DNA of 64,000 nucleotides from Eubacteriales bacterium (GTDB taxonomy: Bacteria > Bacillota > Clostridia > Oscillospirales > CAG-272). This document shows, piece after piece, positions 43,689 through 59,971 of this stretch. Every line of letters starts with the position of its first letter. Within the stretch, counting starts at the first letter, position 1. A program made the position numbers and the translations under genes. The notes under the pieces are model-generated. The model was not told where the DNA came from. It saw only the letters and a list, made by a program, of their open reading frames with translations, and ran no database searches. The stretch spans positions 6,347-70,346 of the forward strand of contig JAZQHJ010000173.1 in the NCBI GenBank assembly GCA_045540515.1, read 5' to 3'.

Positions 43689-44468
43689 ATGGATGAAAAC
43701 ATGGAATTATTCGGAGAAGAGGGCTTTGACGACATTGGCGAAATTCCAGTAGGAGCGCAAAAGGAAATTCTTGTAGTGCCAATTATCGACGCATCAGGAA
43801 GTATGAGTGACTATGGCAACATTACAAAGGTTAATGAGGCAATGGCAACTGTACCAGCACAGCTCAAGCAAATTGAACAAAAAGAGCATGTTAAGGTTGT
43901 ACTAGCACCACTTGCGTTCAGCAACGAGGCAAAATGGCTCGGCTTACAAGGTGGCTCACCTGTTTACGTGGATCAATTCGTATGGAGAGACCTTTCTGCA
44001 TCTGGCGGAACAAACCTTGGAGATGCTTACACAAAGCTATGGGAAAAGCTCACAACAAAGGAGCAAGGCGGTTGGATGGACGGCAGAAAGGGCTTAAAGC
44101 CAATTCTACTTCTCATTTCTGACGGAGCTCCAAATCCAGGCTGGGAAAGACCTTTTGAAAAATTAAAGGAAAGAGGCTGGTTCAGCACATCAATCAGATA
44201 TGCAATCAAGGTTGAAAGTGCAAGAGAGGACGTTCTTTTGGCATTTACAGAAAACAAAGAGGCTATCTATGATATTTCAACCCTAAGAGACAAGCTTTCT
44301 TCTTTAATTGTAAAAATTATTATGAAGGTAACCGAGGCTGTAAGTAAGGGTGGCGGAGTTAAGGCAAACATCGGTGGTTCAAATCAAAGCATGGACCAAC
44401 AAGCAAACAAAGAGATAATTGCTGGCGCTAACGAAGAAATTAAGGCAGACGACCCAACCCTATTCTAA
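43689..44468 (+). CDS. TerY-like von Willebrand factor A domain protein (intact MIDAS)
   Basis: MIDAS DxSxS in PIIDASGSMS, Thr in SGGTNLG and Asp in LLLISDGAPN. Confidence 0.8.
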   Translation: MDENMELFGEEGFDDIGEIPVGAQKEILVVPIIDASGSMSDYGNITKVNEAMATVPAQLKQIEQKEHVKVVLAPLAFSNEAKWLGLQGGSPVYVDQFVWRDLSASGGTNLGDAYTKLWEKLTTKEQGGWMDGRKGLKPILLLISDGAPNPGWERPFEKLKERGWFSTSIRYAIKVESAREDVLLAFTENKEAIYDISTLRDKLSSLIVKIIMKVTEAVSKGGGVKANIGGSNQSMDQQANKEIIAGANEEIKADDPTLF

Positions 44469-44490
44469 TTAAAATAACGCAAATCAGACC

Positions 44491-44516
44491 TGTCCGCCGT
44501 CGTAGGACGGTGGACA
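44491..44516 (+). other. strong intra-operon RNA hairpin (11-bp stem, GTAG loop), no T-run
   Basis: TGTCCGCCGTC gtag GACGGTGGACA (one G-U pair), located 23 nt after the vWA stop codon. Confidence 0.5.
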
Positions 44517-44635
44517 AGCTCTGGTTACAAAAAACAAATGACCTTAAAAGTCCAAGCACGGCTTGGCAAAAAAGAAATAAATTTGAAAACAGCTTGGCAT
44601 ATGCCAATAACATAAAATTAGGAAAAGGAGCTAAA

Positions 44636-45358
44636 ATGGCAAAATTACAAGAATCCTCAAAACAAAAACAAATGGAACTGCTAGTAGTTCCAATTATAAA
44701 TGTATCAAAGAGTATGAAGGGCGAAAAAATTTCTTCAGTCAATGAGGCTATGAGCAACTTTGCTTCCCAGCTTCTTGCGATTGAAGAAAACGAGATAAAT
44801 GTGTTGATTGCTCCACTTGTTTTTTCAAGCAAGGCACAATGGATAAAATTAAATGATAATAACCCAGTAAGACCAGCAGATTTTATCTGGGAGGACATAA
44901 GCGCAGATGATGAAGAGGCAAATCTTGGTAGCGCTTACGAATTACTATATGAAAAGCTTCAAACAAAGGAAAACGGCGGTTGGATGCAATATAAAGATAA
45001 GGGGCTATGTCCAATTATTTTGCTTATTTCTGATAATTCTGTTAGCCATAGTGCAAATTGGCAGAAGTCATATGAACACATAAGCGGGCTTTTTTGGTTT
45101 CAATGGGCATTAAGGTTTGTAATAAAGATTGAATCAAATGACGCTCTTGAAAGCTTTGTTAAATGTAGAGAAAATATTTACGATGTTCATCATTTAAGGC
45201 ATGATGTTGGATGCTTTGTTCATCCAATTGTGTGTAGCTATGATAGGTATTGCGACGACGAACCACATTATGAAAATGAGCCCGTTACTCCTCAAAGCAA
45301 CGAGGATGACACAAAGCCAATAGAGCCAATAGATTTCGAAGACCTTTTTCTAGAATAA
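44636..45358 (+). CDS. vWA domain protein with degenerate MIDAS
   Basis: ATG at 44636 follows AAAGGAG. The MIDAS positions read NVSKS (D to N), DDEEANLG (T to A) and LLISDNS (DG to DN). The C-terminus is acidic. Confidence 0.65.
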   Translation: MAKLQESSKQKQMELLVVPIINVSKSMKGEKISSVNEAMSNFASQLLAIEENEINVLIAPLVFSSKAQWIKLNDNNPVRPADFIWEDISADDEEANLGSAYELLYEKLQTKENGGWMQYKDKGLCPIILLISDNSVSHSANWQKSYEHISGLFWFQWALRFVIKIESNDALESFVKCRENIYDVHHLRHDVGCFVHPIVCSYDRYCDDEPHYENEPVTPQSNEDDTKPIEPIDFEDLFLE

Positions 45359-45403
45359 TTTTTAGTAGCATTAAATTAAATACATATACAGCAAGGAGAC
45401 AAA

Positions 45404-46108
45404 ATGGCAAAAAAATACCCATTTGATGAGCTAGAAGAAGGAGTTCCAATTCCACAGTGCTTCGTAGCTCCAATTATTGACACATCTGGAAGCATGTATA
45501 ACATTTTACCTCTAATAAACGAAGCTATAAGTGAGCTTTTACCAATATTAAAGGAAATAGAATTAGACGAGTGCATTGATATAAGCTTTATGCCAATAGG
45601 CTTTGCAAATCAAGCAAGGTGGTTAAGAGCACCAAATGATGATGGCTGTGAATGGGATAAGGAAAAGCTAGTAGCAAGCGGAGGAAGCAATTTAGAGAGT
45701 GCATTTAATTTGCTTTACGATAAGCTAAAAAGTGAAAAAGAAGGCGGATGGTTAAGGAGAGAAGCAACACGACCGGTTCTTGTTCTTATAACAGACGGAT
45801 ATCCAGAGCAAGGCTGGGAGAGGGCGTTAGAGGAGCTAAACAAGGTAAATGCCTTCAAGAACGCTATAAGATATGCAATTGAGCTAAACGATGTAGATGA
45901 AAGGGTTCTTTTAAAATTTGCAGACGAGGATGCAGTTATTCGTGTTTGGAAGAACACAGATATTAAGGAGCTTTTTATGGAATTGATTGTTTTGGCAATA
46001 CAAGAAGCAAGGTGTACTGATAGCCTTTTATTGAATGACGGCATATCCAAGGAAAAAATCATTAGAAGAATAAATGAAGCAATCTTCTATAAAGAGGAAG
46101 AGCTTTAA
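45404..46108 (+). CDS. TerY-like vWA domain protein (intact MIDAS)
   Basis: PIIDTSGSMYN, SGGSNLESAF and VLITDGYPEQGWE. Confidence 0.8.
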   Translation: MAKKYPFDELEEGVPIPQCFVAPIIDTSGSMYNILPLINEAISELLPILKEIELDECIDISFMPIGFANQARWLRAPNDDGCEWDKEKLVASGGSNLESAFNLLYDKLKSEKEGGWLRREATRPVLVLITDGYPEQGWERALEELNKVNAFKNAIRYAIELNDVDERVLLKFADEDAVIRVWKNTDIKELFMELIVLAIQEARCTDSLLLNDGISKEKIIRRINEAIFYKEEEL

Positions 46109-46140: not shown

Positions 46141-47244
46141 ATGGAAAAGGGATTTTTTATATCAAGAAGAGGTGGCTCTCACGCAAGCTCAGGAACACCA
46201 ATGCAGGATTATTCATCAGCGGTAAGATGCGATGATTATAGCATTGCAATAGTTTGTGATGGACACGGATCAGCCAAGCATTTCAGAAGTCATATCGGCT
46301 CACGTCTTGCAACCGAGGTAATACAGGAAAATCTAATAGATTTTGTAAATGCGTATCCAAATTATGAAAGCGCGAGTAAGGATTTTGGCAAAAAGGCTGA
46401 AAGATTAAAGCTAAATATTTTAAATACATGGATTTCCAAAATTGATGAGGATATAGACAAAACTCCTTTTACCGAGGAAGAGCTTAAAAAGGGTGTAGGC
46501 AACAAGGGTGTTGATTATTTAAGCTACTATACCAAGGTTACACCATATGGAACAACTGCTCTTGCGGTGCTTTTGACCAAGGATTATTATGTAGCGCTTA
46601 TGCTAGGTGATGGACTTATTGCAAAAATGGCTCCTTATACTGAAGCGACCGAGGAAACCTTTGAGGGAAAGCGTGAAATTAAAAGAGGCGACCCGATTGA
46701 CTCTATGTGCAACGAGGATGCGGCATATAAAATGCACGTAAAGTGCGTTCCTGTATCAGAGGACGAAAAGGGACTTGCATTTGCAATTTCCTCTGACGGA
46801 TATTGTGAAGCAGGCGTTTTTCCAACCTGGAAAATGCTAAATTGGCCAAAGAAATACATAGTAAGATATGCAGTTAGAGGTATTGACGAGGCAATAGAAG
46901 CAATTACACCTCAATTTGACGAGATTTCAGCAAAAAGCGAAGCAGAGGACGACATTTCAATGGCGATTGCTTGCAATGAACCAGAGTTATATATAGAATG
47001 GGCAAAGGCGGAGAGAGAAAAGGCTCTTAAAGCAAAGGCAGAGGCAGAGAGAAAAGCCGAGGAAGAGAAAAAGGCAGAGGCTGAAAAGGAAGCAACGGCG
47101 AAAGCAGAGACAGAAGCAAAGGAAGAAGAAAAGGCTCAAAGCACAGAGCAAGAAAGCGCCCAAGCACCTGATGAAAAGCCAGAGCAGGAAAATAAAGAAA
47201 CCGAGCAGACCCCTGAAAAGGAAGAGGATGCTCCAAAGGAATAA
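46141..47244 (+). CDS. PP2C-family Ser/Thr phosphatase with E/K/A-rich low-complexity tail
   Basis: MQDY...AIVCDGHGSAKH, LMLGDGLI and AISSDGYCE blocks. The last ~90 aa are KAEAERKAEEEKKAEAEKE... Confidence 0.75.
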   Translation: MEKGFFISRRGGSHASSGTPMQDYSSAVRCDDYSIAIVCDGHGSAKHFRSHIGSRLATEVIQENLIDFVNAYPNYESASKDFGKKAERLKLNILNTWISKIDEDIDKTPFTEEELKKGVGNKGVDYLSYYTKVTPYGTTALAVLLTKDYYVALMLGDGLIAKMAPYTEATEETFEGKREIKRGDPIDSMCNEDAAYKMHVKCVPVSEDEKGLAFAISSDGYCEAGVFPTWKMLNWPKKYIVRYAVRGIDEAIEAITPQFDEISAKSEAEDDISMAIACNEPELYIEWAKAEREKALKAKAEAERKAEEEKKAEAEKEATAKAETEAKEEEKAQSTEQESAQAPDEKPEQENKETEQTPEKEEDAPKE

Positions 47245-47279: not shown

Positions 47280-47801
47280 ATGGAGCATTTATTCATTTTA
47301 GTTGACACCTCGGGAAGCGTTGTGCTTGAAGGGATTCAAAAGATTGGACAAATTAACGATTTTTTAAGAGATGTGATAATTGCAACAATAGACCATCTTA
47401 AATCAATTCATGTTATTTTGTATTCTGATTTGCCAAGGGTTTATTTTAGAAAATCCGACGGAAGGGGATTCGGAGAAATCAAGGACTATGAATTTACAGG
47501 ACGCTCTAATCTTGGAAAGGCATATGCATTAACTAAAAAAATAATGGATGAGCAATCAGTTGATTGCTCAAATTCCATTATTGCCATAATATCGGACGGA
47601 GAGGCAACCGATAATTACAAAAAGGAGCTTATGCTCCTTGACCCAGACCAGAAATCAAAGAGGATTGCAGTGGGCTTGGGTGCAGAGCAAGATACACTTG
47701 AAGACCATATAAACGAAACAGGTGTAATTATATCCGATATAACAAGCGATAATGCAAAACGAGAGTTTATAGGCAACACAATCAATACAATTACTATATA
47801 A
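47280..47801 (+). CDS. short vWA domain protein (intact MIDAS)
   Basis: FILVDTSGSV, GRSNLGKAY and AIISDGEATDN. The protein is 173 aa. Confidence 0.7.
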   Translation: MEHLFILVDTSGSVVLEGIQKIGQINDFLRDVIIATIDHLKSIHVILYSDLPRVYFRKSDGRGFGEIKDYEFTGRSNLGKAYALTKKIMDEQSVDCSNSIIAIISDGEATDNYKKELMLLDPDQKSKRIAVGLGAEQDTLEDHINETGVIISDITSDNAKREFIGNTINTITI

Positions 47802-47813
47802 AAGAGGATAAAA

Positions 47814-50800
47814 ATGAACATATCAGCAAAAGATCTGGCAAAATTTTTACAGAATTCCGTTTCCTTTGATTTTTCAAAGGAAACAATTTTGTCGTACAAT
47901 AAAATACGCAGAAGATATGATGATTTTTATGCCTTGGAGAATAAAAGAGCATTTATTGCCTTGCTTAATGATATAATCGGTGATGACAATCAGTTGGTTG
48001 ATATTTTTGCTGACCTTCAAGCAGCCGATAGAGGATTCAGATTTTTTGCAAACGAGGAAAATAGGCAGTCAAGAAGCGTATTAAACGCAATCGGCTATTT
48101 TTTAAGCGACAGACGATTTGATTATCACAAAAACGATATTGCAAAGGTATATTTTGCAATAAACACATGGCTCTGCTTCTACGGTGCAAATGAGGTTTCA
48201 CTTCACTGGACCGTTTGTCCTCTATGCACAAAAAAGATTGTATTTGGACAATGCAGTAATTTAAGCTGTAAGAAGAAGGAAGAGGAATTTATTCCTATAA
48301 TGCTTGAGCTTCAAGCAATTTTAAAGGCAGAAAACGAAGGCAAGGAAATGCCTTTGCCAAAATATTTTAAAACGATTGAGCCAAATGCCGAGTTTGGCTT
48401 TTACAAAACAAGCATTGAGCAAAAAAGGAACGAAAGAAAGGCGCAACAGGAGCAACAGGAGCAGAAGGACAAAAAGAAAGCAATTGAGCTTGCAGAAAAG
48501 GAGCTTGTAAAGATTTCTGAAAAGGCAAGGCTCGAATCCGAAAAGGAAGTTCCTGATTTTGATTCAATTTTTAAGGAGCTTACAACAAATCCTATAATCC
48601 TTGAAGCACTAAAATACAAGGACAAGAGCTTTGAGAAAAAGCTCAATGCCTTAAAGGAGCAAATTCAAGGCTATAAGGACAGCGTTTATTCAAAAAAGGA
48701 GCAAGAAAGACAAAAGGCAATAGCTATAAATGACTTTAAAGCTTTTTCTCTCCTAAAAGCAAAGCTGGATGCAGAGCTTGCAAACAAGGGAATTGAGCTC
48801 CCTCTTGAAGAGGTTAGAGAGCTTTTGGCAAAGGCAGATGAGGCATTTAATAAGGTTGACACTGCAAATACAAGATACCCAAGCCTGTATTCAAAGTCCG
48901 AGAAGGAAGTCATTAAGGACTACAAGGAAAGCACCAAGCCAAAAACCGAAAAGAGAATCGAGGAAAGAGTCGAGGAGGAACGCCTTGACGACGCCAAGGA
49001 CAAGCTTGTAATAGCTATTGGTGAAATTGAAAAGGAATACGAAAGATGCAAGAATCTCAAGGACGGCGCAAGTGAGCTTTGGGAAAAATTTATAAACGAG
49101 ATTGAGAAAAACGAGGAATATATTGACTGTCGTGAGGTTCCAGCGTGGGATGCTGTTTATTTGGAAATAACAGGACCAATAAAGCAGAAGCTTTCAAATT
49201 TGCTTACAGAGGAAACCGAACAAAAGAAAAAGCACTTTATGTCAGCAGTTGTTCCTTTAAAGGATAAGGTAAGCAAGGCAAAGCCAGCGGACAAGTCTGC
49301 AAATGCTTTATCTAACGAGCTTAAAGCAATAAAAGCTAACAAATACTATTCGAGCATAAAGCAAAGTGCTGAATACAAGAAGGAAATTGCTTGGCTTGAA
49401 AACAAAATAAACGACCTACAAGCAAAGGAAAGGGCATATTTCAAGAGAAGAAAGACAGCCGTTTCAGCAACATCTATAACTATTTTGAGCCTTGCTATAA
49501 TTTTGTACTCACTGCTTGCGTACATTATTCCAATTTCAAGGGTTCAAATCAAATCAACAAAAGCCTCGACTAATAATTATTCAGTTGAAAGCTTAAAGGA
49601 CAACGAAACTGAATTTTTGATAATAGACGAGTATTTACCACATTTCTTTTTACAAAAAAGTAAAAGGGTTTCAAGCATTTCAAGCGAAGCCTTTAAGAAT
49701 AATGAATATCTTAAAAAATGCACACTTCCTGCTTCAATTGAAAGAATAGGAGAGGGAGCATTTGATGGATGCACAAGCCTTGGTCTAGTAGTGCTACAAT
49801 CCAATGAGCCACCAAAAATTGAGAGTAGCTCGTTTGATAATTGTAACACAATTTTTGTCGTGCCAGAGGAAAGCTACTCTGCGTATATGCAAAGCGAGGA
49901 CTGGGCAAGACACAGAACAAAAATTTTCCCAAATTACAACAACCAAGACGGCTTTGGCACTGTTATGTTCGATTCAAATGGTGGAAGCAGTGTTGAAACA
50001 ATGAAAACAATTCAGCTAAATGCACAGGTAAGCACACTTCCAACCCCAACCAAGGAGGGCTACGCCTTTGCAGGCTGGTATTACATTGATGCAGAGGGCA
50101 AGCAAGCCGTAATGAGCAATGATGATGCAGTGTTTTCAACAAGCACAAAGCTTGTTGCCAAGTGGAAGCAGGGCGTATATTCAGTAAGCTTTGAGCAAAA
50201 CGATGGCACAGGAAAAGCAACAAGCGCTGACTATACATATGGTGAAAGATGGGAGTCATTCCCACAGCCTACAAGGGATGGATATACCTTTGAGGGCTGG
50301 TATATAAATGACAAGAAGCTATTAGAGACATCACTTGTTAGCATTACAGGAAATGCAACTGCAATAGCAAAATGGACTGCAAACGAATACAGTGTTAGCT
50401 TTGATTATGCAGGCGGAGAGTCTTCAACAGAGCAGACAACGGTAATTTTTGATGGAAAATACGGAGAGCTTCCACAATCAACAAAAGTGGGCTATACCTT
50501 TGGTGGTTGGAGCTATGAAAATGAAAGCATTAGTTCAAGCACAGTAGTTAAAGCACCAAAAAATCATACGCTTGTTGCAAAATGGATTCCAAACACCTAC
50601 ACAATCCGTTATGAGGCTATGGGTGGAATAATAAGCGAAGAGACTATAATCTGCGAGTACGATAAGCCAGTGACACTCAGCGCTCCGCAAAGAGCTGGTT
50701 ATACCTTTGTTAACTGGGAGTGCGACGGAGTAACCTATCTTGCAGGAGACGAGGTTCTCAATCTTGCAAGCACAAGTGCTGAGTTTGTTTTTGAGGCTAA

Positions 50801-53800
50801 TTGGAAAGCAAACACCTATAAAATTAAATACGATTCAGACGGAGGAAATGTAAACAAGCAGGAGCAGGATTGCATATATGATGTAGATGTCGTGCTTGAA
50901 ACACCGACAAGAAATGGCTATAAGTTCCTTTACTGGTCATATGGCTCTTACAAGCTGTATGGTGGAGAGGTTGCAAGCAATCTTTCATCCACACAAGGGG
51001 ATGAAATACAGTTAAAGGCAATATGGAGAGCAATTACATATACAATTGAATATGATGCAAATGGTGGAGAGCAGGTAAACAATAGCGTTCTATGTACATA
51101 TGATGTTCCTACAATACTAGAAACTCCAACAAGAGATGGCTACACCTTCAAGCATTGGACACACCAAGGGACAATTTATGAGGCTGGACAAAGCATTGTA
51201 AATCTTACAAGCGACGATGAAGGAAAAATCAAGCTTGTTGCCGTTTGGGTCGCTAAGGAAAATGTTATCACCTTTAATCCAAATGGTGGTACAGGAGAAA
51301 TGACCGACGTTAATATACTTTCCGATGGTAGTGTACAATTACCACTTAATGCATATGCAAAAAATGGCTATACCTTTATAGGTTGGAGCACACAGAAAAA
51401 TGGTAGCGTTGAATATAAAGACGGAGATACCTTTGAGGCAGGAACAGAGTCAAGCTATACTCTTTATGCCGTTTGGGAGGCAAATGAAAACAAGCTAATT
51501 CTTTATGCAAATAACGGTACACAGGAGAGCATTGAGCTAACTGTTAAAACAGCACAGACAATAACAATACCTAAAAACACCTTCACACGTGCAGGATATA
51601 CCTTTACAGGCTGGGAGCTGGCAGATGGAACAGGTGCATCCTACAAGGATGAGGCAGAGATAGTAATGCCTGCAAGTGAGGAATCATACCTTGTTGCAAT
51701 ATGGACGGCAAATGATAACACCATTATTTTTGATGCCAATGGAGGAAGTGGAGAAGCAGTTGAACAGCATATCAAGACTGATGAAAATAAGCCACTTATT
51801 GCTTGTAGCTATACAAGAAAGGGTTATAAATTTATAGGCTGGTCAAGGACTAAGGACGGAGGAGTAAACTATTTAGATGGCGCAGGCTATCAAATGGATG
51901 CAAGCGCAACAACAACTCTTTATGCGGTTTGGGAAATCGTAAATTACGATATTACCTATGAGCTAAGCGGAGCAGAAAATTCAAGCTCAAATCCAACAAG
52001 CTATAACATAAGCTCAGGCACAATTGTACTTGAAGCTCCAAGCAAGGCTGGTTATACCTTTGATGGATGGTTCCTTGATGAATTAGCAACTCAACCAATT
52101 ACTCAAATTGATTCAACAAGGCTTGAAGCAATTACTCTTTATGCTAAATTCACAGTAAATACAAATAAGCTTCACTTTAATCCTATGGGAGCAAGTGGAG
52201 AAATGGCAACTCTTGATGTTCAAACGGGCAAGATAGTTACCTTGCCAAGCTGTACATTTACAAAGCCGGGTTACTATTTTGTAGGTTGGAGCACAGAAAA
52301 TGGCGGAGACGTGTCGTATTTTGCTTCCTCATCGTACGAAATGGGAACAGAGGCTGAATATACTCTTTATGCCGTTTGGGATAAGGCTGTATATACCATA
52401 AGCTATGAAACAAACGGTGGAACAAATTCAACCTTAAATCCATCCGAGTACCACATAGAAAGTGCAGAAATTATTTTGAAATCACCTACAAAGGCAGGCT
52501 ATACCTTTGGAGGCTGGTATTCAGAATCAACAATGACAACTGATAAGGTGGAAAAAATATCAGCAGGAAGCACGGGCAATATAACCCTATATGCAAGGTG
52601 GATTGCAAATACAAATACACTCCACTTTAACGCAAACGGCGGAACGGGAGCAATGAATGACGTTAAGCTTCAAACTGGCGAGGAAATGAAAGCATTGCCA
52701 AGCGCTACCTTTGAAAAGGTCGGCTACAACTTTGCAGGTTGGGCACTAACACCTAATGGAAGCTCAATTTATGCAAACGGAGCAAGCTTTGAAATGGGCA
52801 CCGATGCTGAAATGACACTCTATGCAGTATGGACAGACTTTTCATATACTATCTCATATAATTTGGACGGAGGAATAAACAATCAACAAAACCCAAGTGG
52901 CTATGGTGTGGAAACCAACACAATAACACTTGCATCTCCAACCAAGGCAGGCTACACCTTTATGGGATGGTATTCTGAGGATTCCCTTGAAAACAAGATA
53001 ACACAAATTCCAAAGGGAAGCACAGGAAATATTGTGCTTTATGCAAGCTGGGAAGCAAACGAAAATACAATAATATTCAATCCAAATGGCGCAACTGGCT
53101 CAATGAGTAGCATTAAGCTGAAAACAGGCGAGTCGATAAAGCTACCAAGAAATACCTTTAAGAAGGAGGGCCATACCTTTAAGGGCTGGGCAACCACTGC
53201 AAATGGAGCAGTTGCTTATGCTGATGGCTCTGCTTATGTAATGGGTACTGGCTCAACCTATACGCTATATGCAGTATGGCAGGCGAATTCATATGTTGTA
53301 ACATATGCAGACCATTCAAAGACAGTTATCTATGGTCAGTCATACGGAACGCTTTCAAAGCCAAGCACAGAGCCAACAGGATATAAGTTCTCACATTGGA
53401 CATACAATGGAGCAACAATAAGTGCTGGAACAACTGTAACAACTGCGTCAAGCCATACCCTAACACCAGTATGGGTAGCACGTACATATACAGTTTATTA
53501 CGGACCATATTCAAAGACAGTAACATACGATCAGCCATATGGAGAATTTAACACAGTATCAAAGACAGGATATACATTCAATAATTGGAGCTATAATGGA
53601 GCAACAATAACCTCAAATACAATTGTTAAAACGGCATCAGACCATACCTTAAAGGACAACTGGGTAGTAAACTATTACACGATTTCAATTTCTGAAAGCG
53701 GAGCATGGGCAACAGTTGAGGTTAATGGAGTTACATATTCCTCTGAAACTACAATTTCAGCTCCATACAATGCAAGCATAAAGGTTACATTTGGTGCAAA

Positions 53801-54608
53801 TAGCAATTATCAAAATCCTACATGCTCGTACAATGGAACTGCAATATCAAGTGGCTATACAACAACTATGCCAGCAGGCAACGTAAGCATAAGTGCAAGC
53901 GCAACAGAAATTCCATCAGGTGGTAGTTGCTTTGCAAGAGGAACACTGATTGCACTAGGAAATGGCAGAGTGGTTAAGGTCGAGGACCTAAATGTTGGAG
54001 ATGAAATCTTATCATTTGACCACGCAACAGGAAAATTTGTAGCTCAAAGGGTTGGATTTATCTTTAAGGCATTTGAAAGTGTTGAAATAAACGAGCTATT
54101 CTTTGAAAATGGTAGCTCAATTACCTTAACTAACTATGGCGGACACGGTATGTATGATGCTACTCTTGGAGAATATGTACTAATAACACCAGAAAACGTA
54201 AATCAATTTATCGGGCACGAGTTTGCAGTAATGAATGGTGAAAAAATAGGTACAACAAGGCTTGAAGCATATGATTACAGAATTGCATATGTTGAGCGAT
54301 ATGACGTTGTAACCCACAACACCCTTAACTGCATAGCGAATGGATTTATTACATGCTCTGACGTGCTTGTAAGCATTTGCAATGTATTTGAATTTACAAG
54401 CAATTTTACGTATGACCTTGAAAAAATGGAAAACGATATTAACACCTACGGCTTATACACCTATGAGGAGTGGAGTGAATATCTAACCGAGGAGGAATTT
54501 AATTCCTTTGGAGGTGCATACTTCAAGGTAGCTGTTGGCAAGGGCTTAATTACAAGGGATGAAATATTACAGCTCCTTTGGTTCTTGCACAGCTGGAACA
54601 ACATTTAA
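47814..54608 (+). CDS. 2264-aa single-pass membrane protein: cytoplasmic Zn-ribbon + coiled coil, TM helix, BspA-type LRR, 17 Listeria/Bacteroides (Flg_new-type) repeats, beta-rich spacer, C-terminal Hint domain
   Basis: CPLCTKK...CSNLSC ribbon (48215-48269). K/E-rich coiled coil at about aa 170-540. TM helix AVSATSITILSLAIILYSLLAYIIPI (49458-49535). LRR IERIGEGAFDGCTSL. GY(T/K)FxGW occurs 17 times. CFARGTLIALGNG...THNTLNCIANGFITCS is the Hint domain. Confidence 0.8.
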   Translation: MNISAKDLAKFLQNSVSFDFSKETILSYNKIRRRYDDFYALENKRAFIALLNDIIGDDNQLVDIFADLQAADRGFRFFANEENRQSRSVLNAIGYFLSDRRFDYHKNDIAKVYFAINTWLCFYGANEVSLHWTVCPLCTKKIVFGQCSNLSCKKKEEEFIPIMLELQAILKAENEGKEMPLPKYFKTIEPNAEFGFYKTSIEQKRNERKAQQEQQEQKDKKKAIELAEKELVKISEKARLESEKEVPDFDSIFKELTTNPIILEALKYKDKSFEKKLNALKEQIQGYKDSVYSKKEQERQKAIAINDFKAFSLLKAKLDAELANKGIELPLEEVRELLAKADEAFNKVDTANTRYPSLYSKSEKEVIKDYKESTKPKTEKRIEERVEEERLDDAKDKLVIAIGEIEKEYERCKNLKDGASELWEKFINEIEKNEEYIDCREVPAWDAVYLEITGPIKQKLSNLLTEETEQKKKHFMSAVVPLKDKVSKAKPADKSANALSNELKAIKANKYYSSIKQSAEYKKEIAWLENKINDLQAKERAYFKRRKTAVSATSITILSLAIILYSLLAYIIPISRVQIKSTKASTNNYSVESLKDNETEFLIIDEYLPHFFLQKSKRVSSISSEAFKNNEYLKKCTLPASIERIGEGAFDGCTSLGLVVLQSNEPPKIESSSFDNCNTIFVVPEESYSAYMQSEDWARHRTKIFPNYNNQDGFGTVMFDSNGGSSVETMKTIQLNAQVSTLPTPTKEGYAFAGWYYIDAEGKQAVMSNDDAVFSTSTKLVAKWKQGVYSVSFEQNDGTGKATSADYTYGERWESFPQPTRDGYTFEGWYINDKKLLETSLVSITGNATAIAKWTANEYSVSFDYAGGESSTEQTTVIFDGKYGELPQSTKVGYTFGGWSYENESISSSTVVKAPKNHTLVAKWIPNTYTIRYEAMGGIISEETIICEYDKPVTLSAPQRAGYTFVNWECDGVTYLAGDEVLNLASTSAEFVFEANWKANTYKIKYDSDGGNVNKQEQDCIYDVDVVLETPTRNGYKFLYWSYGSYKLYGGEVASNLSSTQGDEIQLKAIWRAITYTIEYDANGGEQVNNSVLCTYDVPTILETPTRDGYTFKHWTHQGTIYEAGQSIVNLTSDDEGKIKLVAVWVAKENVITFNPNGGTGEMTDVNILSDGSVQLPLNAYAKNGYTFIGWSTQKNGSVEYKDGDTFEAGTESSYTLYAVWEANENKLILYANNGTQESIELTVKTAQTITIPKNTFTRAGYTFTGWELADGTGASYKDEAEIVMPASEESYLVAIWTANDNTIIFDANGGSGEAVEQHIKTDENKPLIACSYTRKGYKFIGWSRTKDGGVNYLDGAGYQMDASATTTLYAVWEIVNYDITYELSGAENSSSNPTSYNISSGTIVLEAPSKAGYTFDGWFLDELATQPITQIDSTRLEAITLYAKFTVNTNKLHFNPMGASGEMATLDVQTGKIVTLPSCTFTKPGYYFVGWSTENGGDVSYFASSSYEMGTEAEYTLYAVWDKAVYTISYETNGGTNSTLNPSEYHIESAEIILKSPTKAGYTFGGWYSESTMTTDKVEKISAGSTGNITLYARWIANTNTLHFNANGGTGAMNDVKLQTGEEMKALPSATFEKVGYNFAGWALTPNGSSIYANGASFEMGTDAEMTLYAVWTDFSYTISYNLDGGINNQQNPSGYGVETNTITLASPTKAGYTFMGWYSEDSLENKITQIPKGSTGNIVLYASWEANENTIIFNPNGATGSMSSIKLKTGESIKLPRNTFKKEGHTFKGWATTANGAVAYADGSAYVMGTGSTYTLYAVWQANSYVVTYADHSKTVIYGQSYGTLSKPSTEPTGYKFSHWTYNGATISAGTTVTTASSHTLTPVWVARTYTVYYGPYSKTVTYDQPYGEFNTVSKTGYTFNNWSYNGATITSNTIVKTASDHTLKDNWVVNYYTISISESGAWATVEVNGVTYSSETTISAPYNASIKVTFGANSNYQNPTCSYNGTAISSGYTTTMPAGNVSISASATEIPSGGSCFARGTLIALGNGRVVKVEDLNVGDEILSFDHATGKFVAQRVGFIFKAFESVEINELFFENGSSITLTNYGGHGMYDATLGEYVLITPENVNQFIGHEFAVMNGEKIGTTRLEAYDYRIAYVERYDVVTHNTLNCIANGFITCSDVLVSICNVFEFTSNFTYDLEKMENDINTYGLYTYEEWSEYLTEEEFNSFGGAYFKVAVGKGLITRDEILQLLWFLHSWNNI
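49956..53666 (+). repeat. in-frame tandem protein-repeat array (17 units of ~63-75 aa, four subtypes)
   Basis: The repeats fall into four subtypes, which I label A-D. Reading along the gene, the order is D x6 (aa 715-1146), A x3 (1150-1375), alternating B-A x3 (1376-1822) and C x2 (1826-1951). Each unit carries a GY(T/K/N/Y)F.(G/N/H/Y)W core. Confidence 0.8.
53928..54356 (+). other. Hint (Hedgehog/intein-like, BIL-type) domain
   Basis: It starts at Cys2039 (CFARGTLI, the intein block A pattern) and contains VVTHNTLNCIANGF (block F-like). It ends ITCS instead of the canonical terminal HN. An 83-aa tail follows. Confidence 0.7.
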
Positions 54609-54667: not shown

Positions 54668-57600
54668 ATGCTAATAAATGAATTTATTAAGGCAGGAGAG
54701 GTATGGGATGCGTATAAGCAATCATATCGTTCTCAAAAAGAAAGCTACAAAAAAAGCTACGAGACTCAAAAAGCGCAAAAGATAAACGAGCAAGGTACAC
54801 TTTATAAAAAGATTAATGACCTTAAATTAAAAATCAATCAAAATGAAGAAAGCCTTCGTGCGCTTGTTTCAGAAACCTTTGAAAGCGTTGCATTTGAAAG
54901 GATAAAAAGGTCAGTGAGCGCTTTTGGCATCACCTCAAGCAAAAGGGACAGAAGCATTGATATTGAAAACGTCAAGAGTGAGTTAAAAAGGGCACTGCTA
55001 GAAAAGAAGGCTTGCGAGGCAAGAGTCCCAAAAATTCAAGATGAAATAAACGAGCTTGACAAGGCATATCAAGAAAAAGATGCTAAGCTTGATAATGACT
55101 ATCAAAGCAAAAAGCAAGAAACAGAGAAAAAGGTTATTGCAAAATATGATGCCGAGACAAAAAGATGCGTTCGTAAATATAGCTCTAAAACAACAGTTCC
55201 AGAGCCACCAAGCCTACCACCTAAAAAGGTTATTCTTGGAACTCAAAGAGCGGTGGTTTCAACGCTTAACGATGTTTTACCAGGTCCAATATATATGCCA
55301 TATGAGGTGGATGTAAAGGACAATGGAAGCTTTGCAATAAACGTAAGCCAAAATGCACTAAATAGTAGAATCACAGAAAGCATAATGGTAGGAATGCTTC
55401 TTAAATACATAGATTCATTTCCTGCAAAAAAGCTTCATATAGGTGTATTTAGTCCAACACTTGCATCCTTTAACCATTTGAATGCTCTTTACAACGCAAT
55501 GAAGAGTGAGGGCTGTACAGTGCTTCCAGAGGGCATTAGCTCGGCAAATAGAATAGATGAGCTGTTTAATGCAATTGATGTAAAGGCAAAGGGAATAAGG
55601 GATGATAAAATTTTACGCTCGGGACTTAGCAACATTTTTGACTTATATGATGCAGGTCAGACAACCGAGACCTTTACTGTCGTTGTTTTACATAATGCTC
55701 TATCAAGCCTAAATGATGAGGAAATAAACAAGCTTTCCAGCTTCATAAAGGGCTATCACAGATGTGGAGTTAGATTTATAATAGTAGAGGATTTTTCATC
55801 TATAAATACAAGAAGCTCAATAAATTATGCAAGAGCACTTGATGAAATAAAGCAGAGCTGTACAAGAATTGATATAAATGAAAAAGGAATAGCAAGGGTT
55901 GATGGTATAGAAACCTCTATGATGTCCTTAATGCCTGATTTTGATGAAATTAAGGTTTATAACTACTGTATTGATTATCTTAAAAAGGAGAAAAAATCAG
56001 CATACGTCACCTACGAAAGCATTGGCTTTGGCAAGGAGACACCTGACGCTGATGAATATACAAGAATACTAATACCAGTTGCAACAACTGGCTCTGGGGC
56101 TTGGCATATGAAGTTTGCTTGCGAAATCAACGAATCAAAGCTGGCTCCGATTGCAAATCTTATACTTGGAGAGTCTGGCTCGGGAAAATCCTGCTTGATT
56201 GAATCAATGATATATAATGCTTCAATGAAATATTCTCCTGATGATTTAATTTTCCATTTTCTTGATTTTAAACAGAATTCAACAGCGGGCTTATATCTTA
56301 ATGAAACATACAAAATTCCCCATATAAAGGTGCTAACGGCAGATAGCAAGCCAGAAGAGGCAAGCTTTATTCTTGATAATATATTAGAAGAAAACATAAA
56401 AAGAATAAAGACATTTTCCGATCTTGGAGAAAAGTACAAAACAGCAATAAAAAATATAGCACAATATAATAAGTTTATTGTAACTAACGGCGTACAGATT
56501 TCAAAAATGCCACGACTTATTATAATAGTGGACGAGTGCCAATATCTTTTTGCATCTGACGCACTTGTAGATAAGCTGACTTCAATAGTAAGACTAGGAA
56601 GAAGCCAAGGTATTCACATAGTTCTAGCGACACAAACACTAAACTCAACCATGAGAAGCTGGGTATCTAAATTTGTTAATGGATTATATGTTTATTCATC
56701 TCCACAAGAGGATATAGAGGCAATTTTGGATAAGCAATATCATAAGCGTGTTAACACCGAGGCTCCTGTGGGATCGTTTCAATGCTTTGCTTCGGATAAT
56801 GGAGGAAGCTTGTGTACAAAGATAACCCCTGCCTTCTATGGAGATCCACCAGAGCCTATAAGCTATTCAAACGCAATAAGAAGCAAATGGAGTAGCTATC
56901 CATGCGACACTGTTGTAATAGGCGAAAAGAGAGATCTTTATATAAATAACGAGGATTATCAAAAAATCCTTGGCAAGCTTGATAATTATAAAATTGCCTT
57001 TGGAGAAAATTATCAAAACAGAGAGCCATTTTATTTTGAGTTGAAGCAAAAAATAGGACAAGGTGTTGATAAAATAGGTTCAGTTGTCCTTATTGGAGAC
57101 AATGATGTTATTGCATCAAGTCTTTGTACGTCTGTTTTGTTAAGTGCAAAAAGAAACAAAACAAAGGTATATGCAATAGATATGTCAAGGTCACAAACAC
57201 TTGCAACAATAAAAAGCAAATGCTTTGATTCTGATTCATCAATCTTTGTAGGAAAGGGCGCTGATTATAACTCTACCATTGCAAAGGTTTATATGGAATA
57301 TGAAGCAAGATGCGCTGAGTTCAACAATGACCCGTCTGCAAAATTTGAGCCCATTATTTTAATGATAAATTCTGCTGACCGTATAAATGATTATAATAAC
57401 AATACATTGTATGAAATTAAGGCCGAGCAAAAGGAGAAAAAATCCAGCGCTGATTCAAATAATCCGTGCATAGGCATTCCTGGATATGCTCCGCTTGATG
57501 ATTATATAAGTGATGAGGAAAGCGATACAAATAATGAGTATTCTGCAAAGATAAAGGTAAGGGACGCTCTTTACGAAATTCTTAAAAAAGGTGCAGATTA

Positions 57601-57871
57601 TGGAATAGTTGTGTGCCTGTGGGCAAACGACAATGAAGAAATTAAAGCAAAGCAAACGGGCTTTATCAAGCTAGCGTTTAACGCAATCCCTTCAAACATC
57701 TCATCATATTTTGATAATTCGTTCTATGAAAGAATGACTGATGGTATGAGTCAGACCATGGCATTTGTTAACCATTACGATGCTACTGTGGGAAGATTGA
57801 ACAAGCGTATCAGGGTATATCAATATGATTTGGATGACGAGGATTTAATTAAATTTATTAGAACATTATAA
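54668..57871 (+). CDS. FtsK/SpoIIIE-family ATPase, three P-loop-like modules (only the middle one intact), N-terminal coiled coil, no TM or FHA domain
   Basis: Walker A GESGSGKS (aa 501-508), Walker B IIIVDECQ (aa ~618-625) and LGRSQGIHIVLATQ. The flanking modules are degenerate (FTVVVLHN...GVRFIIVED and SVVLIGDND...PIILMINSADR). Confidence 0.8.
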   Translation: MLINEFIKAGEVWDAYKQSYRSQKESYKKSYETQKAQKINEQGTLYKKINDLKLKINQNEESLRALVSETFESVAFERIKRSVSAFGITSSKRDRSIDIENVKSELKRALLEKKACEARVPKIQDEINELDKAYQEKDAKLDNDYQSKKQETEKKVIAKYDAETKRCVRKYSSKTTVPEPPSLPPKKVILGTQRAVVSTLNDVLPGPIYMPYEVDVKDNGSFAINVSQNALNSRITESIMVGMLLKYIDSFPAKKLHIGVFSPTLASFNHLNALYNAMKSEGCTVLPEGISSANRIDELFNAIDVKAKGIRDDKILRSGLSNIFDLYDAGQTTETFTVVVLHNALSSLNDEEINKLSSFIKGYHRCGVRFIIVEDFSSINTRSSINYARALDEIKQSCTRIDINEKGIARVDGIETSMMSLMPDFDEIKVYNYCIDYLKKEKKSAYVTYESIGFGKETPDADEYTRILIPVATTGSGAWHMKFACEINESKLAPIANLILGESGSGKSCLIESMIYNASMKYSPDDLIFHFLDFKQNSTAGLYLNETYKIPHIKVLTADSKPEEASFILDNILEENIKRIKTFSDLGEKYKTAIKNIAQYNKFIVTNGVQISKMPRLIIIVDECQYLFASDALVDKLTSIVRLGRSQGIHIVLATQTLNSTMRSWVSKFVNGLYVYSSPQEDIEAILDKQYHKRVNTEAPVGSFQCFASDNGGSLCTKITPAFYGDPPEPISYSNAIRSKWSSYPCDTVVIGEKRDLYINNEDYQKILGKLDNYKIAFGENYQNREPFYFELKQKIGQGVDKIGSVVLIGDNDVIASSLCTSVLLSAKRNKTKVYAIDMSRSQTLATIKSKCFDSDSSIFVGKGADYNSTIAKVYMEYEARCAEFNNDPSAKFEPIILMINSADRINDYNNNTLYEIKAEQKEKKSSADSNNPCIGIPGYAPLDDYISDEESDTNNEYSAKIKVRDALYEILKKGADYGIVVCLWANDNEEIKAKQTGFIKLAFNAIPSNISSYFDNSFYERMTDGMSQTMAFVNHYDATVGRLNKRIRVYQYDLDDEDLIKFIRTL

Positions 57872-57883: not shown

Positions 57884-58171
57884 ATGAAGCTTCCAGAAAG
57901 AATAGAAGAAATAAATATGGATCCCGAAGCTGTAAGGGAGCAAATCAAAAAAATATCTGGAGAATTTGAAAAAATAGGCGAAATTAGCGAAAGAACGAAA
58001 AACAATCTAGTTGCGCTTGAGGGTAACTTTAAAAGTGGAAACTATATAAGAGCAGCAGAGGCAATAGGATCTGTAAGAGCTAAAATGACAAAAGCAGAGG
58101 TGGAATTTGATGAGCTTATTCGCTCTTGCGACTCCCTTGTAAAGAAAGTTGAAGAAATAACAAAAAGATAA
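57884..58171 (+). CDS. WXG100-like small helical protein (FKSGN variant), paralog of 58454-58741
   Basis: 95 aa and predicted all-helical. The central turn LEGNFKSGNYIRAAEAIGS sits where WXG100 proteins carry W-x-G. The gene lies immediately downstream of the FtsK-like ATPase. Confidence 0.5.
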   Translation: MKLPERIEEINMDPEAVREQIKKISGEFEKIGEISERTKNNLVALEGNFKSGNYIRAAEAIGSVRAKMTKAEVEFDELIRSCDSLVKKVEEITKR

Positions 58172-58182
58172 GGAGGCTAATT

Positions 58183-58440
58183 ATGGCACAGGGACAAATC
58201 ATAGAAACAAAGGGCATATTGCTTCAAGTTATAAAGGATTTAACAAAATATAAGGATGAAGTTGATAAAATAATGAAATCAATTCTTCAAAAGACCAATG
58301 AGCTAAATAACGATTGGAAGGATGCTCAATACACCAAGTTTCAGGCTTATATTGAGGATATTAAAAAAGGGATCGATAATGATTTGAAAGAGCTTGATGA
58401 ATGTGTTGCAGTATTAAAGAAAAGAGCGGAGCTCTATTAA
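58183..58440 (+). CDS. WXG100-like small helical protein (WKD variant)
   Basis: 85 aa. The central NNDWKDAQYTKFQAYIEDI resembles the W-x-G-x-A-x-x-F core with Gly replaced by Asp. Confidence 0.5.
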   Translation: MAQGQIIETKGILLQVIKDLTKYKDEVDKIMKSILQKTNELNNDWKDAQYTKFQAYIEDIKKGIDNDLKELDECVAVLKKRAELY

Positions 58441-58453
58441 TTAAGGACTAAAA

Positions 58454-58741
58454 ATGGGAAATATGGATGCATATGTAGATACCAACGCATTGAGAGATGG
58501 TGGTTCAAGTCTTGTGCAAAAAGCAGAAGGAATGCTTGAAATAACAAATCAACTCAAAAATAATCTTAACGCAATTTCTAATTATTTTAAAAGTGGAAAT
58601 CAAGAGCGTGCAGCAGAGGCAGTTGGAAATTCAGCCGTCGTTGTAAAAGACGTAGCTGATAAGCTGGAAATGCTTAACAAAAAGATGAATGAGCTTGCAT
58701 GCTGTATTGACGAATACGAGGAATGCACCTATGGCAAGTAA
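58454..58741 (+). CDS. WXG100-like small helical protein (FKSGN variant)
   Basis: 95 aa. The central ISNYFKSGNQERAAEAVGNS is paralogous to 57884-58171. The tail reads CCIDEYEECTYGK. Confidence 0.5.
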   Translation: MGNMDAYVDTNALRDGGSSLVQKAEGMLEITNQLKNNLNAISNYFKSGNQERAAEAVGNSAVVVKDVADKLEMLNKKMNELACCIDEYEECTYGK

Positions 58742-58759
58742 TAATAAGAGGTGAATCTT

Positions 58760-59320
58760 ATGGATATACAAAACCAAAATTTTATAAGCTTTATAAACCT
58801 AGCAGAGCAGAAATTTGAGGCAAAGTATAAGGAATATATTGAAAAGAAAAGAAACGACGAAGCAGAGGCAAACCGTAAGCTAGGCGAAATATCCAATTTG
58901 CTAAATCAGCTATCAAATCACAAAAGCATGATAAAAAATCCTATCCTTGCCCAAAGATTTCTTGATATTTTGAATAGAATTAGCCAAACAAATATCAGCG
59001 GAACCCCAAGCTATGCAAAGCTTGTATATTATTTAAATCGCTTAAATGATATTAAGCATGATGAATTTGCTTTAAAGAACAATCCTAGCTATTGCAATAC
59101 TGTTTTGACAAAAATAGCACAGCAATATATACTCATATACAGAAAGCTTGAAAGCGACAAAAAATCAATTGAAGTGCAATTTAAGGCTGAGTCTGATAGG
59201 CTTTTTAATGAATACAAGAATGCTATGCAAGAAAACGCCTATGCTGTTGTTAAAAGAGCAAGACAATATGCAGGAGTCGAGGCAGATGCATTAATAAAGC
59301 AAATTGAAGATAGCATATGA
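58760..59320 (+). CDS. hypothetical helical protein (186 aa)
   Basis: ATG at 58760 follows AGAGGTG. The protein is K/E/N-rich and helical, with no recognised family. Confidence 0.4.
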   Translation: MDIQNQNFISFINLAEQKFEAKYKEYIEKKRNDEAEANRKLGEISNLLNQLSNHKSMIKNPILAQRFLDILNRISQTNISGTPSYAKLVYYLNRLNDIKHDEFALKNNPSYCNTVLTKIAQQYILIYRKLESDKKSIEVQFKAESDRLFNEYKNAMQENAYAVVKRARQYAGVEADALIKQIEDSI

Positions 59321-59328
59321 GGTGAAAA

Positions 59329-59601
59329 ATGGCTAAAAATAAAGTAAAAAGCACGGTTCAAAACGCGAGCCGACGTGTTGATTATGATGCCAACACACAG
59401 GTCGCACTTGCAAGCTATTTTGGCGCACCAAGCATGGTGGATGAAGCAACTGTAAAGGAATTTGAAAAGGATTTTAATGCTGATAACAAATATACAAGGG
59501 GAACACATTTCAAGGAATTTATTTCAAGAAATCGCAGACCAATTACAATATCTGCAATAGTGGTTGCCGTAGTGTCTGTTCTTCTTGTGATTATATTCTA
59601 G
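59329..59601 (+). CDS. tail-anchored small membrane protein
   Basis: 90 aa with a single C-terminal TM segment ITISAIVVAVVSVLLVIIF. RBS is GAGGTG. Confidence 0.45.
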   Translation: MAKNKVKSTVQNASRRVDYDANTQVALASYFGAPSMVDEATVKEFEKDFNADNKYTRGTHFKEFISRNRRPITISAIVVAVVSVLLVIIF

Positions 59602-59602
59602 T

Positions 59603-59971
59603 ATGTGGAACAGGAACAAAATGGAACAAATAAACCCAAAAAGTCAAGGCAAGAGAACGGCAATGATAACGCTTATATGCGTTGTGCTAATGCTTATAAT
59701 GTCAGCCCTTGCATATATTCTTGGCATAAAGGCACAGGAGCTTATTCGCTTCGGGAAAAGCCCCACAGCCTTTGCAATAGCAACAGTGGTTGTAGCAATT
59801 TTGGCATTTATTTTAGTGGCACTGGCACTTTTCTTTGGCATAAAAATGCTAAGAATGTTAAATGGCAGAGAAATGGGCTATTATATAATTATCAGCATAT
59901 ATTTGATTTTTATTGCATTTATGCTATTGCTTTCAATAAGTGGCATAATGATTGCAATTCCGCTAATATAA
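59603..59971 (+). CDS. small polytopic membrane protein (3-4 TM)
   Basis: Hydrophobic segments MITLICVVLMLIMSALAYILGI, AFAIATVVVAILAFILVALALFFGI and YYIIISIYLIFIAFMLLLSISGIMIAIPLI. The true start may be ATG 59621. Confidence 0.45.
   Translation: MWNRNKMEQINPKSQGKRTAMITLICVVLMLIMSALAYILGIKAQELIRFGKSPTAFAIATVVVAILAFILVALALFFGIKMLRMLNGREMGYYIIISIYLIFIAFMLLLSISGIMIAIPLI

Follow-up and report, generated by a model that had tools for sequence, protein, structure and literature searches.

The subject of this study is a protein of 2264 amino acids (aa), referred to as the giant, that is encoded in a 64,000-nucleotide stretch of DNA from a Eubacteriales bacterium (contig JAZQHJ010000173.1; the whole analysed stretch is called the window) at the end of a cassette of kinase, PP2C, and von Willebrand factor A (vWA) genes. 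Very probably, the giant crosses the membrane once, with about 550 aa in the cytoplasm and a repeat array of about 1690 aa outside the cell. Its cytoplasmic part, composed of a zinc-ribbon head and a helical rod, represents a previously unnamed protein family and, together with a small vWA protein, probably constitutes a two-gene add-on to an expanded cassette of the TerY-P type. Such cassettes are widespread and tied to phage defence as well as to atypical modules resembling type VII secretion systems (T7SSs), and the gap addressed here is what serves as their inputs and targets. To this picture, our analysis adds a dedicated partner whose C-terminus is swapped among soluble, membrane-anchored, and giant surface-exposed forms, and it resolves the locus into three separable building blocks: the cassette, the partner pair, and an ATPase/WXG100 module.

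An initial annotation of the window had proposed a receptor-like, N-in/C-out topology for the giant with a single hydrophobic helix around aa 549-574 and no N-terminal signal peptide, and all of this was borne out by predictions from hydropathy, the charges around the helix (positive-inside rule), conservation within the family, and the types of domain present. In Kyte-Doolittle hydropathy profiles (19-residue windows), the first ~65 aa contain no hydrophobic h-region and nothing that exceeds 0.85, so that a Sec-type signal peptide appears to be absent; the place where one would sit is occupied by a conserved helical domain (residues 1-195) that AlphaFold folds confidently (predicted local distance difference test score, pLDDT, of 96.1). 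The sole segment of transmembrane (TM) grade is SITILSLAIILYSLLAYII at aa 554-572 with a value of 2.31 (full span ~551-574), and the second-best window (1.53) lies within the Hint domain close to the C-terminus. On its N-terminal side the helix is flanked by KERAYFKRRK with 6 Lys/Arg residues and on its C-terminal side by 3-4 of them, an asymmetry found among all 17 TM-bearing members of the family (4-11 before vs 0-4 after the helix, with equal numbers only in P0004, 4 vs 4). The position of the TM helix is similarly constant (~541-567 in 16 of these 17), and the AlphaFold model shows a helix from residue 519 to 579 that is continuous with it. The giant therefore has the one internal signal-anchor helix and the positively charged N-side flank of a bitopic type II protein. 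Because helix position and charge asymmetry are shared across different architectures, the constant part of the family would be cytoplasmic and the part beyond the membrane optional. Anchoring by sortase, choline-binding domains, or an S-layer was rejected, since no LPxTG-like motif occurs anywhere in the giant (its C-terminus is an acidic, helical, conserved tail), Pfam finds no choline-binding or SLH domain on it, and a signal peptide is missing; the annotation had likewise seen none of these anchors and had set the giant apart from typical sortase-anchored adhesins of Firmicutes.

The giant is encoded in one continuous frame, with a ribosome-binding site (AGAGGA) 7 nt 5' of its ATG, and this annotated start codon is right because alignments with homologues begin at residue 1. 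The annotation itself had considered that the N-terminal region might be a separate gene joined to the rest by a frameshift. That the giant is such an artefact of sequencing or assembly can practically be discounted, given that the complete fusion of head/rod, TM helix, and ectodomain is found in at least 7 other full-length proteins from different samples (P0006, P0008, P0011, P0014, P0017, and the open reading frames at loci L006 and L015). What could speak for it is an orthologue that is broken into 979 + 1304 aa at two loci (L001, 10001-16866; L002, 2186-9051), but this break is a frame change near residue 969 and thus lies within the repeats, away from the junction between the N-terminal module and the TM helix. 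The split in these two samples reflects either a pseudogene or an assembly error that recurred.

Within the cytoplasmic part, the head carries the cysteine ribbon that had been noted earlier. The ribbon is conserved, with C135, P136, C138, and C152 invariant among 26 sequences and C147 found in at least 90%, though it has 8 rather than 9 residues between its second and third cysteine. An AlphaFold model of the head based on the 26-member alignment is helical with a small zinc-ribbon hairpin, and Foldseek found no significant match to it in the PDB (best E 4.5). The following region had been described as ~370 aa of K/E-rich coiled coil, and it is indeed highly charged (41% of residues 171-545), helical, and enriched in heptad-periodic windows (19% vs 3 +/- 3% in shuffles). 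However, the all-helical AlphaFold model of residues 1-585 (16 sequences; pLDDT 88.8) breaks it up into helices at 195-242, 271-323, 331-354, 361-415, and 443-488, so that the ~350 aa are modelled as a segmented helical rod rather than one unbroken coiled coil. The whole cytoplasmic model showed weak likeness to spectrin repeats in the PDB (Foldseek, E 0.5), and residues 1-580 have no family in PADLOC, Pfam, or NCBIfam.

An exhaustive phmmer search with residues 1-200 against 1.84 billion cluster representatives retrieved a family of 26 clusters, all from gut Clostridia, in which this N-domain (residues ~1-195) always occupies the extreme N-terminus. A word-indexed search with residues 1-580 against 5.8 billion proteins returned only five relatives, scans with the N-domain alignment in JGI metagenomes and IMG/VR found no relative, and tblastn with residues 1-200 retrieved nothing from plasmid and phage records. 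Judged by sequence, the N-terminal ~195 aa thus define a rare, unnamed family with a variable C-terminus. Its members comprise giants with TM helix, LRR_5 module, Flg_new array, Hint domain, and conserved tail (P0006 with 2290 aa, P0008, P0011, P0014, P0017, and the L006 and L015 open reading frames), tail-anchored proteins with head/rod and one TM helix but almost nothing beyond (P0003, P0004, P0012, P0013, P0015), polytopic proteins (P0007 with 13 TM segments, P0005), and soluble proteins without any TM helix (P0018, P0021, P0022, P0023, P0025, P0026). Since soluble and tail-anchored relatives exist, the core role of head and rod would be a cytoplasmic one.

The cytoplasmic part of the giant had been linked to the vWA, kinase, and PP2C genes by the initial annotation, and comparison of 12 independent loci (the window, L001, L003-L010, L012, and L015) substantiates this connection: The gene order of kinase, vWA(s), PP2C, (TerY_C), small vWA, and N-domain protein is kept in 12/12 loci, and in each of them the small vWA lies directly 5' of the N-domain gene at the end of the cassette. 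In the window, the components that characterize TerY-P systems are all found, i.e., vWA proteins with a metal ion-dependent adhesion site (MIDAS), a PP2C, and a kinase with C-terminal zinc ribbon. Four genes have Pfam VWA matches (with DxSGS in vWA1, vWA3, and the small vWA), the phosphatase matches PP2C_2 (E 3.7e-24; 85.9 bits vs cutoff 24), and the kinase, which has no TM helix, matches Pkinase with 52 bits vs a cutoff of 31.7. Activity of this kinase is uncertain because its catalytic loop is atypical (FQDINNG). We call the cassette TerY-P-like because of this fusion of kinase and zinc ribbon and because TerY_C-domain genes are found at L007, L010, and L012; PADLOC made only generic kinase and ATPase matches in the window and no call of TerY-P or any other known defence system. 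The two conserved genes at the start of the operon have no PADLOC, Pfam, or NCBIfam family, and relatives of the second one (394 aa) are fused to a kinase-like domain.

Several further features of these cassettes were observed. The PP2C ends in an ~80-residue low-complexity tail rich in K/E/A (aa 290-367) that is missing in shorter orthologues (290-333 aa). The first operon gene (288 aa; 40142-41008, + strand) has a metallopeptidase-like HExxH motif (HELGH), and a domain with 30% identity to its product forms the C-terminus of a putative toxin at L013 (14366-15802). At L010 (11468-17355), a soluble N-domain protein is followed by genes for a 544-aa protein, DO-GTPase2, GAP1-N2, and TerY_C, which suggests that the same head/rod adaptor is wired there to a GTPase-centric conflict module. 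The second vWA shares 94% aa identity between the window (44510-46367) and L013 (6427-9224), with ~81-87% DNA identity over the tract, far above kinase (47%) and ATPase (45%). Near-identity of one gene amid such divergence marks the locus as a mosaic and suggests recent recombination inside the cassette. At L001 (243-3395), genes for a coupling protein of the VirD4/TraG type of type IV secretion systems and for a helix-turn-helix regulator lie directly 5' of the cassette, a possible sign of a conjugative element in that genome; equivalent genes are missing from the window.

The giant gene is followed by an ATPase gene and a group of WXG100-like and small genes that, as far as gene content across loci can tell, form an independent T7SS-like module that is neither needed by the giant nor dedicated to it. 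At L013/L014, which is the orthologous site in the chromosome and shares with the window the GH5 gene upstream, the FGGY kinase and TerB genes downstream, and flanks of 82-90% DNA identity, the cassette is present with a full ATPase module, but small vWA and giant are absent and the PP2C gene is followed by the ATPase gene after 20 bp. The site can therefore be compared with the window as a natural pair with and without the giant. In the opposite direction, giants at L006, L007, and L009 have no ATPase nearby, with radical-SAM/GT2, Tyr-phosphatase/MFS, or Macro-domain genes downstream, and no ATPase is found at the loci of short or polytopic forms (L004, L005, L012) and of soluble forms. Most relatives come from metagenome contigs, and the absence of an ATPase at L006, L007, and L009 refers to the contig.

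The ATPase itself has a single Walker A motif and lacks both the TM helices and the 3-4 FtsK-type NTPase domains of canonical EssC/EccC proteins, although among solved structures EccC5, T. curvata EccC, and YukB come closest to it. Membership in canonical T7SSb or T7SSc was rejected for this soluble protein, which scores far under the family cutoffs (79 bits vs 509 for TIGR03924; 60 vs 778 for TIGR03928). Genes encoding proteins of 389-478 aa lie 3' of the WXG100 genes at L013, L015, L001, and L017. These proteins share an N-terminal helical region of ~200 aa and a Gly-rich linker and differ in their C-termini, which are HExxH-like, C39-like (two), or an LHH nuclease (38 bits vs cutoff 23). 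They fit the pattern of polymorphic toxins expected of T7SS-type cargo and are likely the module's own cargo. A fourth WXG-like gene accompanies the toxin-like gene at these loci (L013 14099-16057, L015 14080-16062, L017 7132-10170, L001 21058-22686), and small genes follow. All of these genes are missing from the window, where the third WXG100-like gene ends 10 bp before that of a 189-aa protein (58741-58751). A 90-aa tail-anchored and a 122-aa protein with 3 TM helices (59329-59971) are kept with the ATPase module (57% identity at L013) and, being the only membrane proteins of this module, are candidates for the membrane-embedded components that serve the TM-less ATPase. The initial annotation had suggested that the giant might be exported or anchored cargo of this ATPase, a view that is not upheld, because L013 has the module without the giant, giants and their short or soluble relatives occur without the ATPase, and the module has a toxin-like gene of its own.

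The ectodomain consists of the modules that had been recognized before, i.e., an LRR_5/BspA-type module, 17 Listeria-Bacteroides repeats, a beta-rich spacer, and a Hint domain, and its domain types are those of surface proteins. Pfam matches LRR_5 (aa 621-679), Flg_new in 16 stretches (E 4e-158), Flg_new_2, and, sub-threshold, Hint, and we counted 17 GYxFxGW motifs at a spacing of 63-76 aa. A profile built from the C-termini of eight family members matched the Hint domain of PDB entry 6y75 over its full length (E 7e-9; profile positions 15-156) as well as the bacterial intein-like (BIL) domain 2lwy of C. thermocellum (2e-4), Hedgehog structures 6tyy/1at0 weakly, and inteins. C2039, directly after SGGS, is invariant in 8/8 sequences, most members have the block-B His, and the C-terminal ...ANG... 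strand is kept, but the domain ends in ...IANGFITCSD with no terminal His-Asn. A splicing intein was rejected, given that the C-terminal His-Asn, which precedes a Cys/Ser/Thr nucleophile in such inteins, is missing. Because of the invariant Cys and the lack of His-Asn, the domain rather resembles the Hints of Hedgehog proteins and B-type BILs. Such Hints carry out the N-terminal acyl shift only. The 83-aa tail behind it is conserved (YD..E.M..DI..YG.Y.Y.EW...EF..F.G.YFK.A..KG) with 30-54% identity, about the level of the rest of the protein, and is not polymorphic. It has no family in Pfam, NCBIfam, or PADLOC, and all that a homology search with Hint and tail retrieved were short fragments from this family.

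The explanation that we consider best, and which is probable though by no means certain, is that the giant is a bitopic N-in/C-out protein whose cytoplasmic head and rod partner the TerY-P-type cassette in a way that does not depend on the ATPase. Its TM helix would act as an internal signal anchor for insertion by Sec/YidC, and the head/rod may bind the small vWA and be either a scaffold for the kinase/PP2C switch or its substrate. Because of the N-in/C-out polarity, the LRR_5 module would be membrane-proximal, followed outward by the 17-repeat stalk, the beta spacer, and Hint plus tail at the distal tip. With its catalytic Cys kept and no C-terminal Asn, the Hint domain would probably self-cleave at Ser2038-Cys2039 and so process this tip. 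The ectodomain could couple surface events to the kinase/PP2C switch, most likely as an input, and it is reasonable to regard the giant as a putative sensor; it may be either a sensor or a regulated surface structure, the data being compatible with signalling in both directions. Some observations weigh against this explanation. Soluble and tail-anchored members cannot sense anything outside the cell, so that, instead of a receptor, the conserved part may be an adaptor or effector. Furthermore, 4 of 5 independent ATPase-module loci have a giant gene directly upstream, which makes some functional coupling possible, and the ATPase of relatives known from metagenome contigs may be encoded elsewhere in their genomes. 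The N-in/C-out topology, finally, is a prediction from hydropathy, charge, and family conservation.

A more specific proposal, which we regard as rather unlikely, makes the giant the outside-in receptor of a TerY-P-type conflict or immune cassette. The ~1700-residue array would carry at its tip the Hint domain and a tail resembling an adduct-recognition region. A thioester or cleavage event generated by the Hint domain would then report contact of the surface with an adsorbing phage, a competing cell, or a host ligand; the rigid rod would pass it on to vWA, kinase, and PP2C, and this switch would license optional outputs like T7SS-like toxin export, GAP1-N2 GTPases, or a Macro-domain protein. 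If true, this would amount to a system of bacterial defence or competition that is built on a new domain family and has an extracellular sensor of its own. We see it as unlikely that the giant is instead a membrane dock or envelope-spanning conduit that recruits the ATPase through coiled-coil contacts, similar to EsaA or TsdI. Neither ATPase nor kinase has a TM helix, the N-terminus of the ATPase is coiled-coil, the two genes are adjacent at four loci, and large envelope-spanning proteins have been proposed as components of T7SSd/e (PMC11217815). However, the complete ATPase module of L013 has no giant, giants occur without ATPase, and the conserved 90-aa tail-anchored and ~120-aa 3-TM proteins give the module membrane components of its own. 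Several members of the family, which are only head/rod plus one TM helix or plus 13 TM segments, would suit a membrane-perturbing effector of a TerY-P-type abortive-infection cassette in which the ectodomain is a secondary elaboration. TerY-P-like modules are antiphage according to Gao et al. 2020 as cited in PMC11090510, and effectors of conflict systems typically have variable C-termini attached to a constant adaptor (PMC7159879). This idea is nevertheless quite unlikely, as some members are soluble without any TM helix, a conserved 1700-aa ectodomain with Hint and tail in at least 8 proteins fits poorly as decoration of a pore-former, and PADLOC defence models do not recognize the cassette.

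With a long helical N-terminus and no signal peptide, a position directly 5' of the ATPase gene in the window, L001, L015, and L017, and WXG100-like partner genes at the locus, the giant could also be viewed as a substrate of the T7SS-like module that uses its N-terminus as an LXG-like targeting domain. This is very unlikely for a protein with no LXG/WXG100 Pfam match and an N-domain of unmatched fold, whose TM helix with positive-inside flanks favours Sec-type insertion. A T7SS substrate would be expected to be a soluble protein with an LXG/WXG helical hairpin and to co-occur obligately with an EssC-type ATPase, whereas giant and ATPase module are found apart in both directions, soluble, tail-anchored, and polytopic N-domain proteins are encoded at loci without ATPase, and related ATPase modules have a separate gene of polymorphic-toxin pattern with LHH nuclease, C39-like, or HExxH C-termini. 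Even less credit goes to the idea of an autonomous surface adhesin or polymorphic toxin without functional link to the cassette, from which the Hint domain releases a C-terminal toxin. As in polymorphic toxins, the Hint lies ahead of a C-terminal module, the best solved match (6y75) comes from a protein annotated as ADP-ribosyltransferase, and adhesins typically have LRR and Flg_new arrays. However, conservation rather than polymorphism marks the 83-aa tail, the downstream genes (ATPase, radical SAM enzyme, Tyr phosphatase, or Macro-domain protein) include no conserved immunity-like gene, and the gene order strictly ties the N-terminal module to the small vWA and the TerY-P cassette at all 12 loci.

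Among known proteins, PrkC/PknB kinases (kinase-TM-PASTA) and RsgI anti-sigma factors combine a cytoplasmic N-terminal signalling domain with one TM signal anchor and a large C-terminus that binds ligands outside the cell, and RsgI proteins are known to autoprocess there. In general layout, the giant is alike with its N-terminal cytoplasmic module, one TM helix, and large C-terminal ectodomain, but it has no fused kinase or anti-sigma domain, the enzymes are encoded separately, and no sigma-factor gene is adjacent. With Hedgehog Hint domains and BILs it shares the N-terminal Cys after a small residue, the block-B His in most members, and the ...ANG... strand, while the conserved 83-aa tail stands in place of a sterol-recognition region or variable toxin. 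An LRR module and Listeria-Bacteroides repeats at the surface are common to internalin-like, sortase-anchored LRR/B-repeat proteins and the giant, but the latter is anchored from its N-terminal side by a TM helix and thus has opposite polarity. Unlike polymorphic toxins, it has a conserved tail, no adjacent immunity gene, and downstream genes that vary by locus. The giant is therefore no member of the PrkC/RsgI families, the sortase-anchored adhesins, the T7SS substrates, the inteins, or the polymorphic toxins.

At the level of the locus, the closest comparison is the TerY-P triad of a TerY-like vWA, a PP2C, and a Ser/Thr kinase with C-terminal zinc ribbon (Anantharaman et al. 2012 and Gao et al. 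2020, as summarized in PMC11090510). The window shares MIDAS vWAs, PP2C, the kinase with a C-terminal CxxC...CxxC ribbon plus beta domain, TerY_C genes in related loci, and the optional association with a TM-less EssC-like ATPase and WXG100 genes. It differs by expansion to 4 vWA genes and 2 conserved upstream genes and by the small vWA and head/rod protein that follow, the latter fused to a 1690-aa ectodomain. Bell et al. 2024 described a TM-less, coiled-coil-fused EssC-like ATPase with WXG100 genes beside TerY-P vWA genes in extended type III-A CoCoNuT loci (PMC11090510), and the same paper credits Anantharaman et al. with viewing this unit as a mobile, stand-alone secretion module. The ATPase of the window is alike in lacking a TM helix, in its N-terminal coiled coil and one intact Walker A motif, and in having WXG100-like genes after it and vWA genes around it. 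Unlike at CoCoNuT loci, McrBC/HEPN genes are missing from the window and the modules of its relatives have a polymorphic-toxin-like gene and small membrane proteins, and the giant is no part of the module as described. In T7SSc-T7SSe, the genes of an EssC-type ATPase and of WXG100 proteins are accompanied by those of kinase TscD, vWA protein TscE, and PPM phosphatase TscF, and T7SSd/e have a very large, Ig-domain-rich envelope protein, TsdI, with a Sec signal peptide (Garrett, Higginson & Palmer 2024, PMC11217815). The likeness lies in this combination of enzymes, ATPase, WXG100, and large envelope protein, but ATPases of T7SSc-e are bound to the membrane and comprise four NTPase domains, and TscD, too, possesses a TM helix, whereas ATPase and kinase of the window are soluble; unlike TsdI, the giant has no Sec signal peptide and is predicted to keep an N-terminal module of 550 aa inside the cell. 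GTPase-centric conflict systems with GAP1-N2 and kinase-zinc ribbon, PP2C, and vWA components have been reported by Kaur et al. 2020 (PMC7159879), in the searched part of which the N-domain protein is not described. The arrangement at L010, with the soluble N-domain protein between kinase/vWA/PP2C and the DO-GTPase2 and GAP1-N2 genes, resembles them, while the window has no GTPase genes. In the literature covered, to which Anantharaman et al. 2012 and Iyer et al. 2004 did not belong, we found no description of the head/rod family, its pairing with the small vWA, or its fusion to a Hint-tipped ectodomain. The pair thus offers concrete candidates for the input/output interface of TerY-P-type cassettes.

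Table 1. Features of the giant and its operon, with positions in the window.
Feature	Positions	Strand	Basis
Two conserved upstream genes: 288 aa with HExxH, 394 aa	40142..42207	+	
Ser/Thr kinase, C-terminal zinc ribbon CSGC339...CPIC361 + beta domain (TerY-P type)	42227..43648	+	
Three vWA (TerY-like) genes: 43689-44468, 44510-45358, 45404-46108	43689..46108	+	
PP2C phosphatase with K/E/A-rich tail	46141..47244	+	
Small vWA, 173 aa, MIDAS DTSGS, 12-bp gap to giant	47280..47801	+	
Giant open reading frame, 2264 aa	47814..54608	+	one uninterrupted frame
N-terminal family-defining helical domain (aa 1-195)	47814..48398	+	no Pfam/NCBIfam family, no PDB fold match
Cys4 zinc-ribbon motif C135-x2-C138-x8-C147-x4-C152	48216..48269	+	family alignment
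K/E-rich segmented helical rod (aa 196-550), conserved PDFD at aa 247-250	48399..49463	+	composition, AlphaFold
Predicted single TM helix / signal anchor (aa 551-574), after KERAYFKRRK	49464..49535	+	hydropathy, family, AlphaFold
Membrane-proximal LRR_5 (BspA-type) module, Pfam core aa 621-679	49611..49958	+	Pfam
17 Listeria-Bacteroides (Flg_new) repeats, aa ~716-1950	49959..53663	+	Pfam, motif count
Beta-rich spacer, aa ~1951-2038, ends SGGS directly before Hint Cys	53664..53927	+	
Hint domain, aa 2039-2181, invariant N-terminal Cys, ends ANGFITCS without HN	53928..54356	+	profile
Conserved 83-aa C-terminal tail, no family assignment	54357..54605	+	family alignment
TM-less EssC/EccC-like ATPase, 1067 aa, coiled-coil N-terminus, Walker A GESGSGKS (aa 501)	54668..57871	+	
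Rest of module: three WXG100-like genes, 189-aa helical, 90-aa tail-anchored, 122-aa 3-TM proteins	57884..59971	+	

Beyond the operon, a mobile-element context for the window was rejected, with flanks that consist of chromosomal glycoside hydrolase and sugar-metabolism genes. Just upstream of the locus (36119-38780, - strand), three adjacent genes encode an HD + AAA_33 protein (polynucleotide-kinase-like), an RNA ligase, and an S-adenosylmethionine (SAM)-dependent methyltransferase, a trio that looks like an RNA-repair-type set. On the other side, two genes 3' of the operon and past the FGGY kinase gene, lies a gene for a TerB-domain protein (62095-62550, + strand), which is worth mentioning beside a TerY-P-like cassette.

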